IMG/VR virus record: IMGVR_UViG_2639762960_000007
Length of the DNA stretch: 38,405 nt
Reading direction: 5' to 3' (one strand)
DNA from: a virus
Taxonomy: Duplodnaviria; Heunggongvirae; Uroviricota; Caudoviricetes
Positions 23,728 to 34,472 of this stretch are shown one piece after another. Within the stretch, counting starts at the first letter, position 1. Each line of letters opens with the position of its first letter. A program made the position numbers and the translations under genes. Below the pieces are notes generated by a model. That model ran no database searches. It was given only the letters and a program-made list of their open reading frames with translations, and had not been told where the DNA came from.

Positions 23728-24374
23728 TTCTGTAATCCTTCCCGTTCATCCAGTAACGCGTTTATCTGGTTCCGCCAGCGACGACATTGTCCTGCGTTGT
23801 CGATGATGTTGGCGAGAACGTCACGCTGGGAGACACCCGAATCGCGTAACCGGGTGTCAGTGGTTTCAGGTTGCCCGGTCGCTGTGCCAGAGCGGGTGCC
23901 AGCGGCGGCAACTGAGTCTGAATGACCGGTGTCGACGGATGCGTTGTCATATCCGAGTGCGGCGTTGTACTGGCGCACGAAACCGCGAGTAAACACGCAC
24001 TCAATGGGATGGCTCTTACCTTTTTCATCAATCCAGCGCTGTGTGACATCGTTAATTTGCCCCTGTAGTTGTTTATTCCGGCTCTCCAGTTGAGCAATCT
24101 GCTCAAGATAACCGGCTTCAGCCCGCTGCCCGGCGGCCACCTGCTCCTGATACCGTCTGGCCCAGGCCCGCAGCGCAGCATTCTCAAGCGTTGCCTGCTC
24201 CGTTTTGTACGTGTCGAACGCTGACTGCAACTGACTGAGCGCGGTATCACCGTCACGCTTTGCAGAGTCATGACCACTTCTGTATCCCATGGCATACAGG
24301 CCGACCAGAAAGGCATTGATAAGAATGGCCAGCAGAATGCCGCGCCACGGCAGCTTTTTAACCAGATGCCACAC
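23724..24374 (-). CDS. Rz-like inner-membrane spanin (i-spanin)
   Basis: GTG at 24372..24374 preceded by GGAGG gives about 216 aa: N-terminal TM (GILLAILINAFLVGLYAMG), then a long helical periplasmic domain. Starts at the upstream M codons of the track ORF cannot be excluded. Confidence 0.55.
   Translation of the reverse strand: MWHLVKKLPWRGILLAILINAFLVGLYAMGYRSGHDSAKRDGDTALSQLQSAFDTYKTEQATLENAALRAWARRYQEQVAAGQRAEAGYLEQIAQLESRNKQLQGQINDVTQRWIDEKGKSHPIECVFTRGFVRQYNAALGYDNASVDTGHSDSVAAAGTRSGTATGQPETTDTRLRDSGVSQRDVLANIIDNAGQCRRWRNQINALLDEREGLQK
23762..24028 (-). CDS. Rz1-like outer-membrane lipoprotein spanin (o-spanin), fully embedded in the +1 frame of the Rz-like gene
   Basis: ATG at 24026..24028 gives 88 aa starting MKKVRAIPLSAC (lipobox LSAC), then a proline-rich mature region (TPHSDMTTHPSTPVIQTQLPPLAPALAQRPGNLKPLTPG). 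Confidence 0.55.
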   Translation of the reverse strand: MKKVRAIPLSACLLAVSCASTTPHSDMTTHPSTPVIQTQLPPLAPALAQRPGNLKPLTPGYAIRVSPSVTFSPTSSTTQDNVVAGGTR

Positions 24375-25098
24375 AACTGCTGCCTCCCCATGTGAGATAT
24401 CGCGGTGCCAGTTCGCGCAGGATGCGCTGCGGATAATGGCGGTTCTCCCGCCAGCTGGCCGCATTGCGTCCGGCATTCACCGTGGCGACATGTCCGAACC
24501 AGCGGGTGCTGTCCAGCCCCTGCTGCGAGGCCAGCCGTTTGTCCCGCTGTACCCAGCCCAGACCACCGTTATAGCCTGACAGCGTCATGGCCATACGCTC
24601 GCAGTCACTGGCGGCGCTGACGCGTTGCCACAGCCAGCGGTCATAGCTGACCAGCGCCCGGATGGCCCACGCCGGATTAAACGGTTCACGGCTGTTAAGC
24701 CCCGGCATCAGCTGACTTATCCAGTCAGCGGTGGTGGGCATAAACTGCGCCAGTCCCTGAGCGCCAGCCGGCGAGACCGCATCAGGTCGCCAGCCGCTTT
24801 CCTGATGCAGCTGCGCGGCGAAGTCGGCCACCGGCGCAGACAGTCCCCATTCAAGCCGGGCATTACGGATCACATCATCGCGATACTGCAGCGCAACCTG
24901 CGGAGGCTGCGCTGCGCATGCCTGGCTGAAAAAGCCGCCACACCAGAGCAACATTGCGACAAAGAATACCCATGCCATATGAACCAGAAAGGTCCCGGCG
25001 CGGACTGACAGGCGTTCGGTTCTGATGAAGACCCGAAAGGCTTCGAAAGCCAGTTTCAGGGACATGCATACAATCCAGGTGATCTGCGGCCAGTTCAT
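24358..25098 (-). CDS. Endolysin, soluble lytic transglycosylase (SLT) type, with N-terminal hydrophobic segment (possible signal-anchor-release domain)
   Basis: 246 aa; ATG at 25096..25098; SLT motif region LHQESGWRPDAVSPAGAQGLAQFMP; N-terminal hydrophobic stretch MAWVFFVAMLLWCGGFF. Confidence 0.75.
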   Translation of the reverse strand: MNWPQITWIVCMSLKLAFEAFRVFIRTERLSVRAGTFLVHMAWVFFVAMLLWCGGFFSQACAAQPPQVALQYRDDVIRNARLEWGLSAPVADFAAQLHQESGWRPDAVSPAGAQGLAQFMPTTADWISQLMPGLNSREPFNPAWAIRALVSYDRWLWQRVSAASDCERMAMTLSGYNGGLGWVQRDKRLASQQGLDSTRWFGHVATVNAGRNAASWRENRHYPQRILRELAPRYLTWGGSSCVASG

Positions 25099-25100
25099 GA

Positions 25101-25451
25101 TTAAAGCCCCATCGCAACAGCCAGACAGACAGCTGCAACAATCAGTGCACGGCGGATTAACGCAGCAGAAAATACAAGGTGAAGGCCGGTCTGCACAGGG
25201 AAACGCCCTTCAGCCATCAGCCTGTCTTCATGTTTCAGGTACTGACCGGGACGGGCTTTGGGGAAGAGCGAACGGTCAAGCCAGTACCCCAGCACTGCTG
25301 CCAGCGTGATGAGTGCCAGCTTGTAGATCACAACAGGCAACTGCTGTGGCGAGACCAGAGCGATGATGCCCAGCAACAGCACTGAGGTCAGCAGCCAGCC
25401 GCTGAGGCGAGGTTTTTTAACAGGGGGAATGAATTTTTTCAGGTTTTTCAT
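25101..25451 (-). CDS. Holin (three predicted TM segments)
   Basis: ATG at 25449..25451 preceded by GAGGAG gives 116 aa. The track ORF opens 11 codons upstream (GTG at 25482..25484, then ATG at 25479..25481). First gene of the lysis cassette. Confidence 0.6.
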   Translation of the reverse strand: MKNLKKFIPPVKKPRLSGWLLTSVLLLGIIALVSPQQLPVVIYKLALITLAAVLGYWLDRSLFPKARPGQYLKHEDRLMAEGRFPVQTGLHLVFSAALIRRALIVAAVCLAVAMGL

Positions 25452-25565
25452 GTGTGTCTCCTCGTTTGGTGGAGACAGCATCACAAATGTGGCGGGATAC
25501 GGATTTTAAACAGCGTTAATAGTGAAGATGTAAACGTGCACTGCATGATGGCTTTGAAAGAACGA

Positions 25566-25593
25566 CCAGCCCGGTACCCGAACACCGGGCTGG
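25566..25593 (-). terminator. GC-rich hairpin (10-bp perfect stem, 8-nt loop); candidate minus-strand terminator
   Basis: ccagcccggt-acccgaac-accgggctgg; on the minus strand it is followed by tcgttctttc. Confidence 0.35.
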
Positions 25594-25698
25594 CCATCGC
25601 CCCACAGGAATGCGCTGTGAGCCGACCAAGGTTCAGTCAGTCTCGCGAGACCAGACTAGCCTGCCATATTTTTTATAATTGTAAAAGGCTTACAGATT

Positions 25699-26469
25699 AT
25701 GAAAATGCAGACATTACCCATCGTTCCATGGATTGGTGGCAAACGCCGCCTTGCAAAACACATCCTGCCGCTGTTTCCGGCGCATGAATGTTATGTGGAG
25801 CCGTTTTGTGGGGCAGCAGCGCTCTATTTTCTTAAGGTACCCGGCAAGATCGAAGTCATTAATGATATCAACGGTGAGCTGGTGAACCTGTATCGGGTGG
25901 TAAAACATCATCTGGAAGAATTTGTACGCCAGTTCAAATGGGCGCTGGTCAGCCGGCAGATCTACAAATGGCTGCAGATCACCCCGGAAGAAACACTGAC
26001 GGATATCCAGCGTGCAGCACGGTTCTACTACCTTCAGAAGCAGGCGTTTGGGGGCAAGGTGGCGGAGCACAGCTTTGGTACCTCCACCATATCCCCGCCA
26101 CGCTTCAACCTGCTGCGTATTGAAGAAGAACTGTCAGCGGCACACCTGCGGCTTTCCAGAACGGTCATAGAACACATGGACTGGCAACAGTGCATAGAAC
26201 GATATGATCGCCCGCATACGTTGTTCTACTGTGACCCTCCATACTGGGGAACGGAAGGTTATGGTGTGGAGTTCGGACTAGAAAATTATGATCATATGGC
26301 AGATTTAGCACGCAGGATCAAAGGGAAGATGATTATATCGGTGAACGATATCCCGGAAATGCGGCAGGCATTCAACGGTCTAAATATTCAGTCGGTTGAT
26401 ATCAGCTACAACCTCAAGATCACTGGCAAATCCAGTCGCAAGAAGGAACTCATTATCCTCAACTTTTGA
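25699..26469 (+). CDS. N6-adenine DNA methyltransferase, Dam (D12 class)-like, orphan
   Basis: 256 aa; ATG at 25699; motif I-like EPFCGAAAL and catalytic DPPY (FYCDPPYW); no adjacent restriction endonuclease candidate. Confidence 0.85.
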   Translation: MKMQTLPIVPWIGGKRRLAKHILPLFPAHECYVEPFCGAAALYFLKVPGKIEVINDINGELVNLYRVVKHHLEEFVRQFKWALVSRQIYKWLQITPEETLTDIQRAARFYYLQKQAFGGKVAEHSFGTSTISPPRFNLLRIEEELSAAHLRLSRTVIEHMDWQQCIERYDRPHTLFYCDPPYWGTEGYGVEFGLENYDHMADLARRIKGKMIISVNDIPEMRQAFNGLNIQSVDISYNLKITGKSSRKKELIILNF

Positions 26470-27664
26470 CCGAATAGTAAGACTTCATGCAGTGAATCAA
26501 GTACTGCATGAAGTCAAGGGCTGGTTTTGTGTACCAAAAATAAACAGTGATAGCGGTAATAATTCCCATAACTAGAACACCACGTATAATCCAGAACGTA
26601 CGTTTCTGCGTGTCTAGTCGCGCAGAAATACTGCTAAATACACCAGCCACGTCATCTTTAATGAAGGAATATTCCTTATTAATCTGTTTTTCTTTGTATT
26701 CAATTTCTTCGCCTAAGGCCTTTATAGATTGCATCTGGTTCGAAAGTGCCAGCCAGATTAACGTTGCAGCAAAAATGCATCCCAGAAGAATTATTGTGTT
26801 TGTTATCCCTTGGCCTGACCATTTCGTAGCCACTTTGAATTGGGTAGCTACGATAACAGAGGCAACAGGAATGCCAAGTATATGGTTCTGGATATCTGAA
26901 AACGCTTTGTGGATTTTACCCATTTCTTCGACTTTTGCAGCACGCAGTTGATCCATTACTTTGTCATAAGAGAATCCAGAAGAGTAGATACGATACCCTT
27001 TCAGAAACTTTTCATGCAGACGCTGAATATTGTCCAGTAAATAAGCGAATACTAGAGGTGAATCAATTCCATCACTAACTGCTTGAATACTTTCAATCAG
27101 AATATCTAGCTTCTGATCCTTATGGGTATCATCATTGAAACAAGCTATAAGGTTATCAAGATACTCCCTTTGCAAATTTTGTACATTTTCTGCAGCGAAG
27201 TGCGGTAATAGCTTGATAACTTCTTTTTTCAGAAAAACTAACTGACAAGTTGAGTTATCAAAGTAGGCCGCGGCCTCTTTTAGCAGGTTAACGAACTCGA
27301 GAATCTTCCGGTAGTTGCTGATGAAAACGGGGATATCTTCATCATCATTACGAAATTTTGTTTCTAGGATGAAGTAATTAGCTGGCTCAAGGCACTGATG
27401 CTTTGGAGCATTTAGCAATTTTTCATGGGTGGAAAACACAAGTCCCAGTCCACTCCGTGGTGACGTCACACGTAGGATGATCGTGTTACCTGGAGCGATA
27501 GTGCCTGTATCAATAGAAAGACCATATTCACGAGGATCATCAAGCAAAGTATCAACCAGATCACAATCGGACTGATCTAAGAGCAACAGCGAACCGACAC
27601 GAAACCCCTCTTGGAATTCCATACGACGATACAGAGCTGTCAGCATCTCAAATGAAATCGCCAC
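26459..27664 (-). CDS. Protein with ~270-aa soluble N-terminal domain and three C-terminal TM helices; second gene of the repressor-linked cassette (candidate effector)
   Basis: 401-aa ORF starting at GTG 27662..27664, two nt after the upstream gene's TAA, with GAGG upstream; alternative ATG at 27646. Hydrophobic segments IPVASVIVATQF, ITNTIILLGCIFAATLIWLALS and TFWIIRGVLVMGIITAITVYFWY. AT-rich codon usage. Confidence 0.65.
   Translation of the reverse strand: MAISFEMLTALYRRMEFQEGFRVGSLLLLDQSDCDLVDTLLDDPREYGLSIDTGTIAPGNTIILRVTSPRSGLGLVFSTHEKLLNAPKHQCLEPANYFILETKFRNDDEDIPVFISNYRKILEFVNLLKEAAAYFDNSTCQLVFLKKEVIKLLPHFAAENVQNLQREYLDNLIACFNDDTHKDQKLDILIESIQAVSDGIDSPLVFAYLLDNIQRLHEKFLKGYRIYSSGFSYDKVMDQLRAAKVEEMGKIHKAFSDIQNHILGIPVASVIVATQFKVATKWSGQGITNTIILLGCIFAATLIWLALSNQMQSIKALGEEIEYKEKQINKEYSFIKDDVAGVFSSISARLDTQKRTFWIIRGVLVMGIITAITVYFWYTKPALDFMQYLIHCMKSYYSVKS
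26481..26515. other. Perfect 13-bp-stem inverted repeat at the convergent junction of the methyltransferase and cassette genes
   Basis: gacttcatgcagt-gaatcaagt-actgcatgaagtc, 12 nt after the methyltransferase stop and inside the last ~20 codons of the minus-strand membrane-protein ORF. Confidence 0.4.
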
Positions 27665-27666
27665 GA

Positions 27667-28674
27667 TTAAACCTCAGTCATCCACATTTCCCTAAATTCT
27701 TCAGGTACATTACGTAGGGTGATAATATTTGTTTCCGGATCATAATCAATATAGCCTTCAGTTTTCCCTTCCCGGTCAAACTTAAGTTCCCAATATTTAG
27801 ACTTGCCTTTAAAAGATACCAGAGCCCGAATGACTCGACCATCAGGAACGAAGCCATCCGATAACTCCAACTCTTCAGCAGCAAGTTTACCAGATAACTC
27901 CTCGGGAGCCTGGGGCCAAATGGCATTAACAAGGGTTTCAAGACTAAGTGGTTCACCAGCCTTACTTAGTGCATGTAAGTGTTCAAACGCACTCTTAAGA
28001 AATGCATCTTTTTCAGCGCCGTCAAGTCCTTTCTCTGCCGCAAATGCTTTTAAAACGTCACGTAACTTTTCAGACTCTCGTTTGGCGATTAAGACATCAT
28101 TACAGCCTAGGAACTGTTTAAAATAGTTTGAAACATTACCTTGCCCCTTAAGAAAACTGATATAGCGCTCTGCGCCACTTTCCCACGCGGTTAAGTCAAT
28201 GCGCCCAGCCATACGCAGCTTAGCAATATCAAGATAGGTACTATCTTGGATGTTAAAATCATCTGTGACAGTGGACCCAATGGTAGCGCTTACAATAGCT
28301 ATCAACAGGTGTTCATTGTGTCCTATCACGATATTTGCAAAAAGAACATAACCACCAGTAGCCATGTTTTCTCGCTGAGAACGTTCCGTCAGGTGATGCA
28401 TCATTCGGCAGGAACTTTGGTAGAAATCATCAACACCTTCGAGAAAGTCCCCAGCCATTCGTTCCATAGGATAGTTATCCGTATCGCCTTCAAAATAGCC
28501 ATAACCTTTACCTGTGCGTCCTGCATATTTTGCACAAATATCGTTTATAAGGCGCTGAGAGGCTTCAGTAACTAGACCTTCTTCAGGACTCAATCTCTCA
28601 GAAGCGTCTCCATTTTGTTGTTTGTCTAAAATGTGAACTACAACGTGTTTAACTTCAATGGTCTGCTCAGACAT
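27667..28674 (-). CDS. NdpA/YejK (NA37)-like nucleoid-associated-protein homologue; first gene of the repressor-linked cassette (candidate sensor)
   Basis: 335 aa; ATG at 28672..28674 preceded by GGTGGA. It matches the length and several blocks of E. coli YejK as I recall it (GGYVLF, LLIAIVS, YLDIAKLRMAGRIDLTAWESG, RYISFLKGQG, IITLRNVPEEFRE). The family call is from memory, not a search. Confidence 0.55.
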   Translation of the reverse strand: MSEQTIEVKHVVVHILDKQQNGDASERLSPEEGLVTEASQRLINDICAKYAGRTGKGYGYFEGDTDNYPMERMAGDFLEGVDDFYQSSCRMMHHLTERSQRENMATGGYVLFANIVIGHNEHLLIAIVSATIGSTVTDDFNIQDSTYLDIAKLRMAGRIDLTAWESGAERYISFLKGQGNVSNYFKQFLGCNDVLIAKRESEKLRDVLKAFAAEKGLDGAEKDAFLKSAFEHLHALSKAGEPLSLETLVNAIWPQAPEELSGKLAAEELELSDGFVPDGRVIRALVSFKGKSKYWELKFDREGKTEGYIDYDPETNIITLRNVPEEFREMWMTEV

Positions 28675-28744
28675 TGGCTATCCACCTTATTTTTTATTGC
28701 TTAATGGCAAATAATTTCTGCTATATGTTCTCGTTAGGAACACA

Positions 28745-29152
28745 TTAACCCACATTTTTTAACCGCTCAATCGTTGCGGATAATTCCTTCAGTTGTTTTT
28801 CCATCTCAATCACACGCTGTTTTTCTTCAGCGCCTCGCATGAGATCTCGCCGAACCTCAGGATCTAACTGGTTTAGAAGTTCAAGCATTTTAAGGTCTGA
28901 CGGGCTGAATTGATGTTGTGTTGGTACAGCAACAATTTCTTTAGATGGAATATGTTCTTTACCGGTAAGTAGCCAATCGATTGATACACCCAAATGGGTA
29001 CTTAGCGCAACAAGAGCCTCTGCGTTTGGTTCTCTCTCTCCACGCAAATAGTTTTGAAGTGAGCGATATGGAATTTTTGATAAGTCAGATAATGCCTTTA
29101 TTGTCATGCCATTAGCATCCATCACTTCACGCAATCTCTCTTTTGTACTCAT
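28745..29152 (-). CDS. Phage repressor, HTH (XRE/Cro-C1 type) with C-terminal coiled coil
   Basis: ATG at 29150..29152 gives 135 aa starting MSTKERLREVMDANGMTIKALSDLSKIPYRSLQNYLRG; divergent from the early operon across an operator-like region. Confidence 0.7.
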   Translation of the reverse strand: MSTKERLREVMDANGMTIKALSDLSKIPYRSLQNYLRGEREPNAEALVALSTHLGVSIDWLLTGKEHIPSKEIVAVPTQHQFSPSDLKMLELLNQLDPEVRRDLMRGAEEKQRVIEMEKQLKELSATIERLKNVG

Positions 29153-29168
29153 TTGAACATATCTCAAT

Positions 29169-29196
29169 TTGACACACTCATTTGGGTGTGTACAAT
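29169..29196 (+). promoter_or_regulatory. Candidate early promoter (-35 TTGACA, 16-bp spacer, -10 TACAAT) overlapped by an operator-like dyad
   Basis: TTGACA at 29169..29174 and TACAAT at 29191..29196, 45 bp upstream of the Ner-like ATG; dyad ACACAC-N8-GTGTGT (29172..29191) spans the spacer. Confidence 0.5.
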
Positions 29197-29240
29197 AGAC
29201 CCAATAGAGTACATCATAACCTAACAGGAACACGGTGCAT

Positions 29241-29465
29241 ATGAACAAACAACAAGTTCGGGCACGGCTGGTTGAACGAGGCAGTAGCTTGCGCCAGTTC
29301 GCGCTTAACGCGGGCTATGAACCACGAACAGTCACCCAGGCAGTCAGTCGCTGGGCTGGTAAAAGTGAACTACCTCGCGGTCGTTTGACTTATCGGATTT
29401 TGCGAGATCTATCGGTTGCAATAGGTAAAGAAGTTACCCCCGGTATCCTTAAGGAGGCGTCATGA
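29241..29465 (+). CDS. ner: Ner-like DNA-binding protein
   Basis: ATG at 29241 (track start is GTG two codons upstream); 74 aa with LRQFALNAGYEPRTVTQAVSRW resembling the Mu Ner HTH region; first gene of the early operon. Confidence 0.65.
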   Translation: MNKQQVRARLVERGSSLRQFALNAGYEPRTVTQAVSRWAGKSELPRGRLTYRILRDLSVAIGKEVTPGILKEAS

Positions 29466-33941: not shown

Positions 33942-34472
33942 ATGGCAAAAAGTACAAAAGGGGCAAAACGTATCAAAGCCGCAGCAGCACTCTGGGTGCC
34001 GGGGACACGCGAAGAGGTCATTGAGGGAATCAGACTGCTTGGTGACGCGCAACGTGAACTGGTCAGGGCTGAAACAGAAATGAATGACACCATTGGCGAC
34101 ATCACTGCACGTTATGCCCCGCTCACCGAGAGCCTGAAAAAACGCATGGCCGAACTGCAGTCCGGTATCCAGACATGGTGTGAGGCGCACCGTGATGAAC
34201 TGACCGGCAACGGGAAGGTGAAGTTCGCTAACCTCACCACCGGCGAGGTGCAGTGGCGAAACCGTCCGCCGTCAGTCAGCATTCGCGGGGCGGATAATGT
34301 TATTGAATTACTGAGACGTCTGGGGCTTGAGCGCTTTATTCGTGTAAAGGAGGAAATAAATAAAGATGCCATTCTGAATGAAAAAGAGGCTGTGAAAAAT
34401 ATTCCCGGTATTACCATAAAAAGTGATATTGAGGATTTTTCAATAATTCCTTTTGAGCAGGATGTGCAGTAA
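33942..34472 (+). CDS. gam: Host-nuclease inhibitor Gam (Mu Gam family, Ku-like DNA-end binding)
   Basis: 176 aa; ATG at 33942 preceded by GGAGGAG. It resembles Mu Gam along the whole length as I recall it, including the shared C-terminal motif GIEDFSIIPFEQ. Confidence 0.9.
   Translation: MAKSTKGAKRIKAAAALWVPGTREEVIEGIRLLGDAQRELVRAETEMNDTIGDITARYAPLTESLKKRMAELQSGIQTWCEAHRDELTGNGKVKFANLTTGEVQWRNRPPSVSIRGADNVIELLRRLGLERFIRVKEEINKDAILNEKEAVKNIPGITIKSDIEDFSIIPFEQDVQ

Follow-up and report, generated by a model that had tools for sequence, protein, structure and literature searches.

A NA37/YejK-family gene and its membrane-protein partner on a Mu-like prophage of Escherichia coli M-17 form a mobile two-gene cassette with a probable role in anti-phage defence

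Analysis of the 38,405-nucleotide (nt) sequence IMGVR_UViG_2639762960_000007 from IMG/VR (the whole of this stretch is called the window below) showed a two-gene operon made up of a gene for a protein of the NA37/YejK family and, directly downstream, a gene for a predicted membrane protein (the partner). A Mu-like prophage of Escherichia coli M-17 matches the window at 100% identity, and the prophage setting supposed in a preliminary description of the sequence was thereby confirmed. The two genes are probably an anti-phage cassette that acts by superinfection exclusion or abortive infection, is of the type II PANGU or DS-1-like kind, and is carried by the Mu-like prophage. The evidence consists of the family and fold of the NA37 protein, the operon structure, the obligate pairing of the two genes, their mobility, their status as cargo and the relation of the partner to DS-1B by homology. 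For this locus, both the defence activity and the mechanism are inferred by analogy with published systems.

The open reading frame (ORF) of the NA37 gene (Table 1) starts with ATG and contains exactly 335 codons and a stop. Pfam NA37 (PF04245) matched the protein with 272.1 bits (cut-off 24.6, E=1e-80) over residues 12-327, which correspond to profile positions 1-324 of 325, a full-length match. The structure of YejK (NdpA; PDB 9be2) was the sole sequence relative in the PDB (E=6.8e-30, phmmer). The AlphaFold model, built from 118 homologues, had a predicted local distance difference test score (pLDDT) of 89.6, and Foldseek comparison of this model with the PDB returned 9be2 alone as a significant match (E=5e-22, probability 1.0, TM-score 0.55 over 334 aligned columns), with a TM-score that is consistent with a different inter-domain angle. 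As modelled, the prophage protein shares the two-domain fold of YejK. A phage-borne, diverged homologue of NdpA/YejK, as the preliminary description had proposed, is therefore borne out by sequence, profile and fold, and both the NA37 profile match and the structural match to which that proposal had been tied were significant. The length of 335 amino acids (aa) that it had given as common to both proteins is also that of the host protein (yejK, 1008 nt). The five sequence blocks that it had quoted as shared were all found, namely GGYVLF (107-112), YLDI (147-150), RIDLTAWESG (158-167), RYISFLKGQG (170-179) and ITLRNVPEEFRE (318-329), and pairwise alignments placed them opposite GGFVLF, YLDI, RIDLTEWETN, RYLTFLKGRVG and LTIKGTPPNLRD of YejK, respectively.

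The host M-17 retains its own yejK, which stands alone as a housekeeping gene flanked by rplY and yejL, whereas the prophage gene is in an operon with a membrane protein gene. The two proteins have the same length and two-domain fold and shared 28% identity over 334 residues (BLASTP, E=1e-34). On the NCBIfam YejK equivalog NF001557 the host protein scored 554.4 bits and the prophage protein 186.2 bits, and since the latter is under the cut-off of 341 the prophage protein is not a YejK orthologue; by its sequence the gene is a paralogue-like extra copy beside the host gene. YejK is a chromosomal nucleoid-associated DNA clamp for which dimer-interface and DNA-binding basic residues have been described (Schumacher et al., NAR 2024, PMC11229321). 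The dimer-interface residues are kept in the prophage protein (Y140 as Y147, F285 as F288, G287 as G290, F296 as F299 and P320 as P324), and the C-domain interface positions F288, G290, F299, P324 and L327 are conserved in the family, so that a ring dimer is likely. DNA binding by the prophage protein is plausible. The C-domain triad R276/R280/K284 of YejK corresponds to G279/R283/S287, in which R283 alone is kept; the basic residues R280, K289 and K291 are located near this altered triad, and the family-conserved basic positions R154, K186, K203 and R301 may substitute for the triad residues that have been lost.

The GTG start of the partner gene is 2 nt past the NA37 stop codon on the same strand. 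The partner had no Pfam match and no PDB relative by sequence. Its residues 1-260 are acidic (isoelectric point (pI) 5.0; 39 D+E vs 28 K+R; net charge about -11), and its final 140 residues are basic (pI 9.3). Hydrophobic segments were found at residues 285-311 and 356-378, with a weaker one at about 262-280, and the membrane segments were read from Kyte-Doolittle windows together with the helices of the AlphaFold model. The model had an overall pLDDT of 80 (about 80-90 over residues 1-260) and contained mixed strands and helices at residues 1-210, then a 60-residue helix (213-275), and then two long helices (284-331 and 333-378) that form a helical hairpin bearing the hydrophobic stretches. 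A C-terminal transmembrane domain is therefore predicted. The most conserved motif of the family is juxtamembrane, with invariant or near-invariant positions (GY..F.SGFSYDK...AKVEEMGKIHK.FSDIQN.ILGIPVA..IVATQ.K), and N309-Q310 are invariant in the family. With its alpha/beta domain in the cytoplasm, a stalk helix of 60 residues and a hairpin across the membrane, the layout is weakly CorA-like or alpha-pore-toxin-like. An assignment of the partner as a CorA/Mrs2 Mg2+ channel, for which the CorA fold, a pair of transmembrane helices at the C-terminus and the GMN signature were the criteria, was considered and rejected. Some database entries label partner homologues as "phage-related membrane protein".

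A scan of one genome per species with the partner as the only bait gave 39 loci in Gamma- and Betaproteobacteria. The NA37 gene was directly upstream on the same strand at all loci with a full-length partner (36/36), and this pairing held even where identity to the pair of the window fell to 26% for the partner and 33% for NA37. Among 43 pairs, the spacing between the longest ORFs was -59 to +14 nt and the identities of the two genes co-varied (r=0.97). Three Cupriavidus loci (L031, L032 and L033, 7992-8618) had a 208-aa partner match with no NA37 gene and an unrelated gene context. This protein is the C-terminal membrane half of the partner alone (residues 191-392, 44% identity) and is probably a truncated remnant, although it could be a stand-alone membrane module; as the fragments are most likely remnants, they are no counter-example to obligate pairing. 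In an exhaustive profile search, 1,290 representatives of clusters at 50% identity belonged to the partner family (E<=1e-3), 944 of them at E<=1e-10, and the length of the partner was mostly about 390-410 aa among the best 150 of the 1,290 representatives.

The pair was found in several unrelated kinds of mobile element. It lies downstream of the repressor gene, as in the window, in other Mu-like prophages (L002-4, L008, L011, L015 and L025). A second E. coli variant, with a 344-aa NA37 protein and a 392-aa partner, was located in a lambdoid prophage (L041-L044, 8001-10203) between antiterminator Q and holin, on the strand opposite to the late genes, in 16 of 5426 complete E. coli genomes; its identity to the Mu-prophage variant was about 50% for NA37 and 38% for the partner. 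This slot between Q and holin is a classic moron slot, the one in which Stx phages carry stx. In Pseudomonas aeruginosa (L045-L047, 10330-12749) the pair adjoins an integrase gene followed by genes for an AAA_21 ATPase and an HNH protein (Septu-like), and in one strain (L046, 11923-15902) an OLD-TOPRIM ATPase and UvrD helicase pair (Gabija-like) follows too; together these genes make up a defence island carried by an integrative element. A megablast search of sequenced phages with the pair gave no match, and homologues emerged at the protein level: Sinorhizobium phage phi2LM21 carries both NA37 and partner, and Klebsiella phage Kp4865-4 encodes a partner homologue in an unannotated record in which an adjacent NA37 gene is unconfirmed. 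The NA37 and partner genes are thus an obligate, widely conserved, mobile two-gene cassette that moves as a unit between unrelated mobile elements.

On the M-17 prophage the cassette is AT-rich accessory cargo. The GC content of the repressor-NA37-partner segment (window 26400-29200) is 0.39-0.44, compared with 0.55-0.60 in the rest of the phage and about 0.51 in E. coli. Of 5426 complete E. coli genomes, 637, sequence type 131 (ST131) among them, had the backbone transposase (>=95% identical), and 19 had the pair, which argues that the pair is dispensable for the phage life cycle since most backbone prophages are without it. The gene directly upstream of the NA37 gene encodes the prophage immunity repressor (Pfam HTH_3, E=6e-12; Phage_CI_repr, E=2.5e-6); the Ner-like gene and the transposase operon run divergently from it. 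No terminator-like site was detected in the 70 nt that separate the NA37 gene from the repressor gene, their RNA fold was no better than that of shuffled sequences (z=0.45), giving no stable structure, and the spacer was 96% conserved in a Mixta prophage. With the same strand, the short spacer and no terminator, co-expression with the repressor in the lysogen is the simplest reading, and the repressor gene probably supplies the transcription of the pair during lysogeny.

The published two-gene systems give the pair its probable function. DS-1 is a validated E. coli defence operon in which the YejK-domain protein WP_000355468.1 is followed by the 404-aa protein WP_000150292.1 (DefensePredictor; DeWeirdt et al., Science 2026, PMC13092281). 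The order is that of the window pair, with an NA37 protein and then, 2 nt later, a protein of about 404 aa. The window proteins showed about 23% identity each to the DS-1 pair (E=8e-9 for the NA37 half; E=6e-10 for the partner, BLASTP against WP_000150292.1). The NCBIfam model DS1_2_antiphage matched the partner with 75.9 bits (E=3e-21, residues 74-366) and matched all members of the partner family (114/114, best E=3e-29); judged by these matches, the partner is homologous to DS-1B.

Type II PANGU (Li et al., bioRxiv 10.64898/2026.04.06.716658, 2026) pairs a YejK-like nucleoid-associated protein (Pag2A) with a membrane protein (Pag2B) whose N-domain is acidic and which ends in a transmembrane domain at the C-terminus. 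In the same preprint, both genes of PANGU-Ecu from uropathogenic E. coli were required to abort T4 infection, T4 escaped by inactivation of denA (endonuclease II, which starts host-DNA breakdown), Pag2A-GFP departed from the nucleoid upon infection, when host DNA is degraded by T4, and the N-domain of Pag2B bound Pag2A with a dissociation constant (KD) of 19 nM. The window pair has the same described architecture, that is, an operon of two genes in which a YejK-like nucleoid-associated protein precedes one of about 400 aa whose cytoplasmic N-domain is acidic and whose C-terminal region is transmembrane. Its 2-nt spacing lies within the authors' bicistronic limit of <40 bp between neighbours, and both type II PANGU and the window family are found in Pseudomonadota, are mobile and are sometimes located beside known defence genes.

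From this architecture a clamp-release mechanism is proposed for the window pair. In the lysogen, the pair would be transcribed with or alongside the repressor. The NA37 protein, for which the fold and the dimer-interface residues support a YejK-like ring dimer, would ride non-specifically on chromosomal DNA. A superinfecting lytic phage that degrades the host chromosome would release the clamp, by analogy with the homologous PANGU systems, and the freed clamp would bind the acidic N-domain of the partner, which would act as a competitor of DNA in the basic pore; of this step, the acidity of the N-domain and the domain layout were observed. Binding would activate the C-terminal membrane module, so that the membrane would be compromised and the infection aborted. 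The "DNA sensor" role that the preliminary description had guessed at agrees with the later publications on homologous two-gene systems and is put forward here from homology and context, while its other suggestion, an altered nucleoid structure of host or invading phage, received no support in this analysis.

Several points weigh against this reading. The N-domain triad R173/R176/K177 of YejK corresponds to Q178/gap/N180 in the prophage protein, and with this triad lost its DNA binding may differ. The acidity of the partner N-domain is no more than moderate (pI 5.0, net charge about -11). The PANGU evidence comes from a preprint, and the window pair is likened to it by its described architecture. 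The scores on the DS-1 equivalogs NF053868 and NF053869 were 63.7 vs 330 and 75.9 vs 315 bits, and scores so far under the cut-offs place the window pair in a separate subfamily. The DS1_1 match of the NA37 protein was rejected as evidence of defence because it is non-discriminating, the host housekeeping YejK scoring higher (81 bits). PADLOC (2023) recognised neither protein as a defence component, barring a weak KwaA match, and no known defence genes were found within the window apart from an orphan Dam.

Four other explanations were weighed against an anti-phage cassette. The NA37 protein could be a regulator or architectural factor of the mobile element, tuning prophage expression or counteracting the silencing of the AT-rich immunity region by H-NS. 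A precedent is NdpA2 of the integrative and conjugative element PAPI-1 of P. aeruginosa, which together with TprA relieves silencing of island genes by the H-NS-like MvaT (PMC8565334), and the NA37 gene does lie beside a repressor gene in an AT-rich segment of the H-NS-target type. This explanation was nevertheless considered improbable: it leaves the strictly conserved, translationally coupled membrane partner (36/36 loci) unexplained, the pair is also present in unrelated phages and islands with entirely different regulatory circuits, and most backbone prophages are without it (19 vs 637 genomes). A membrane-level module for superinfection exclusion or lysis timing, with no sensing of DNA damage, was rated marginally lower; the membrane protein would prevent injection of DNA or modulate the holin and endolysin nearby, and the NA37 protein would be an accessory or anchor. 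The pair adjoins the lysis cassette here and a holin gene in the lambdoid variant, and the name "phage-related membrane protein" given to some homologues would fit. The lambdoid pair, however, is on the strand opposite to the late and lysis genes, the P. aeruginosa and many other loci have no lysis genes nearby, and type II PANGU requires both genes, with escape mapping to denA and not to injection or lysis (bioRxiv 10.64898/2026.04.06.716658).

It is very doubtful that the pair is an addiction module, toxin-antitoxin-like, which stabilises the prophage through a toxic membrane protein restrained by the NA37 protein. Such a role would suit an operon of two genes, one of them for a potentially toxic membrane protein, that is carried as accessory cargo on mobile elements, and toxicity of the partner had been suspected in the preliminary description. 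PANGU single-gene and two-gene constructs were, however, non-toxic and their authors exclude a classical toxin-antitoxin system (bioRxiv 10.64898/2026.04.06.716658); the gene order and sizes (335 aa + 401 aa) are also atypical of toxin-antitoxin pairs, and an addiction module has little obvious role here because a transposable prophage is not lost by segregation. Least probable of all is a role of the NA37 protein in Mu-type replicative transposition or transpososome assembly as a replacement for host architectural proteins. The chemistry of Mu depends on DNA-bending or architectural proteins, which HU and IHF provide as host proteins, the element is a transposable phage and the NA37 gene is close to the transposase operon; yet about 97% of the E. 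coli prophages that have this transposase lack the pair, it occurs in non-transposable phages and islands, and it is always linked to the membrane protein. This distribution, with islands that have no lysis or transposition genes among the carriers, speaks against lysis control, injection blocking and addiction as well.

A more elaborate form of the defence reading has three parts and was held to be speculative and rather unlikely: the cassette would be a Rex-like, lysogeny-expressed device in which a DNA clamp gates an oligomeric channel, Mu-type phages would be safe carriers, and the repressor-proximal slot would be a defence hotspot with new systems. The channel is suggested by the weak CorA-like or alpha-pore-toxin-like hints in the partner layout, and safe carriage by the replication of these phages through transposition, without degradation of the host chromosome, and by their encoding Gam. 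Since the NA37 system would be triggered when nucleases destroy the chromosome, Gam might affect self-compatibility while the prophage itself grows lytically.

The slot itself, between the repressor gene and the holin gene (window 25500-29250), is a variable cargo site of the Mu-like backbone. In sibling prophages it holds other unannotated genes beside different repressor alleles, for example for proteins of 328 aa and 193 aa; 242 aa, 134 aa and 71 aa; 178 aa (with a hydrophobic stretch); or 306 aa and 126 aa. None of nine alternative cargo proteins at the slot matched Pfam or PADLOC, so the slot cannot be called a defence hotspot, and these proteins are candidates for lysogenic-conversion or defence functions.

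The features of the window that bear on the cassette are listed in Table 1. The M-17 Mu-like element contains genes for a CI-type repressor, a Ner-like protein, a DDE transposase, an ExeA/MuB-like protein, Gam and Mor, and on the other strand genes for holin, SLT endolysin, head and contractile tail.

Table 1. Positions of the cassette and of related features in the window
Feature	Position	Strand	Description
SLT endolysin	24358-25098		Lysis cassette near the pair
Holin	25101-25484		Lysis cassette near the pair
Orphan Dam-family N6-adenine methyltransferase	25699..26469	plus	Converges on the partner gene, 11-nt overlap at the partner 3' end
Partner gene	26459..27664	minus	401 aa, GTG start, RefSeq WP_001007984.1; predicted membrane effector, Pag2B-like, DS-1B homologue
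Partner residues 261-401 + stop	26459..26884	minus	Membrane region; holds the most conserved motif of the family
Partner residues 1-260	26885..27664	minus	Acidic cytoplasmic alpha/beta + helical domain; candidate NA37-binding ("DMK"-like) domain
NA37/YejK-family gene	27667..28674	minus	335 aa, RefSeq WP_000003711.1; predicted DNA-clamp "sensor" subunit, Pag2A-like / DS-1A-like
Repressor-NA37 spacer	28675..28744	minus	70 nt, Shine-Dalgarno sequence AAGGTGGA
Prophage immunity repressor	28745..29152	minus	HTH_3 / CI-like, 135 aa per RefSeq; directly upstream of the NA37 gene
Gam-family host-nuclease inhibitor	about 33942-34472	plus	L001 27484-28014
Slot in compared prophages			L052 3335-6085, L053 3842-6472, L003 5623-6623, L011 5221-6958

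The methyltransferase gene that converges on the partner gene matched Pfam MethyltransfD12 (E=7e-28) and TIGR00571 dam (116.9 bits, cut-off 114.85). Prophages of Mixta and Brenneria (L002, L003), like phi2LM21 (L048 2882-3718), also have a convergent adenine methyltransferase gene after the pair. Either a coincidence, as phages often carry Dam, or a functional link could account for this. At the left end of the element (L051 4874-7130, window 1 to about 2090) there is a small serine recombinase of 190 aa, Gin/Cin-like, and by RefSeq annotation the window begins inside its gene. It adjoins genes for tail fibre and tail-fibre assembly, of which one is annotated as truncated, and the arrangement is reminiscent of the invertible host-range (G) segment of Mu. 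The M-17 prophage is inserted between rstA and rstB (L051 4005-5446, L001 31786-33383), which belong to one two-component system and are neighbours in E. coli K-12, and the insertion may separate rstB from its promoter. The same prophage was found at different coordinates in other genomes, as expected of a transposable phage.

AT-rich DNA is usually bound by H-NS. As H-NS is reported to silence immunity loci (2026 preprint, 10.64898/2026.09.05.749240) and the segment is AT-rich, expression of the cassette may be conditional.

The defence function of operons with NA37 and partner genes is already published (DS-1, PMC13092281; PANGU), and no new category is opened here because the homologous systems were validated in 2025-2026. 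At least two variants exist in E. coli, the Mu-prophage one (335+401 aa) and the lambdoid one (344+392 aa), and PANGU-Ecu as tested could be either; if it is the former, the window locus is already known. What the present analysis adds is the position of the cassette next to the repressor gene, a lysogeny-type location, in a Mu-like prophage common in E. coli, the recurrent carriage by several unrelated temperate phages, which is absent from the discussion of the PANGU preprint, the loss of the N-domain basic triad of YejK, a structural sketch of the predicted effector, and a variable cargo slot with uncharacterised occupants in a very common E. coli Mu-like prophage. The M-17 locus is a well-defined native E. 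coli locus for experiments, in a strain used as a probiotic product.

Compared with known defence systems, the window pair is alike in composition to Kiwa, a two-gene operon of the membrane protein KwaA and the DNA-binding protein KwaB, with the gene order reversed. A link to Kiwa was rejected: the KwaA match at the C-terminus of the partner was weak (21 bits, E=8e-5), was present in only 8 of 114 family members and was taken as noise from transmembrane composition; the NA37 protein had no KwaB/DUF4868 match in Pfam or PADLOC, and no Kiwa structure was among the fold matches. DS-1A differs from the window NA37 protein in being 391 aa long with an N-terminal zinc-ribbon-like segment, which the window protein does not have, aligning from DS-1A residue 64 onward. 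In lambda, RexA and RexB form a lysogen-expressed two-gene exclusion module beside the repressor gene, with a cytoplasmic DNA-binding sensor and a membrane effector that cause abortive infection. Their likeness to the window pair is an analogy of logic only, as no sequence or fold similarity was found in any search (Pfam, PADLOC and fold comparisons), and the proposed Rex trigger is a DNA-protein complex, whereas that of PANGU is release upon genome degradation. Prophages have 0 occurrences in the PANGU preprint, whereas the window cassette is repressor-adjacent prophage cargo. The cassette stands in the classical lysogenic-conversion position behind a prophage repressor, much as rexAB stands beside cI in lambda. 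On the reading as an anti-phage cassette, a housekeeping-type nucleoid protein fold would have been recruited onto temperate phages as one half of a mobile immune module, and a prophage set against a lytic competitor would be a natural ecological setting for the mechanism proposed for PANGU.

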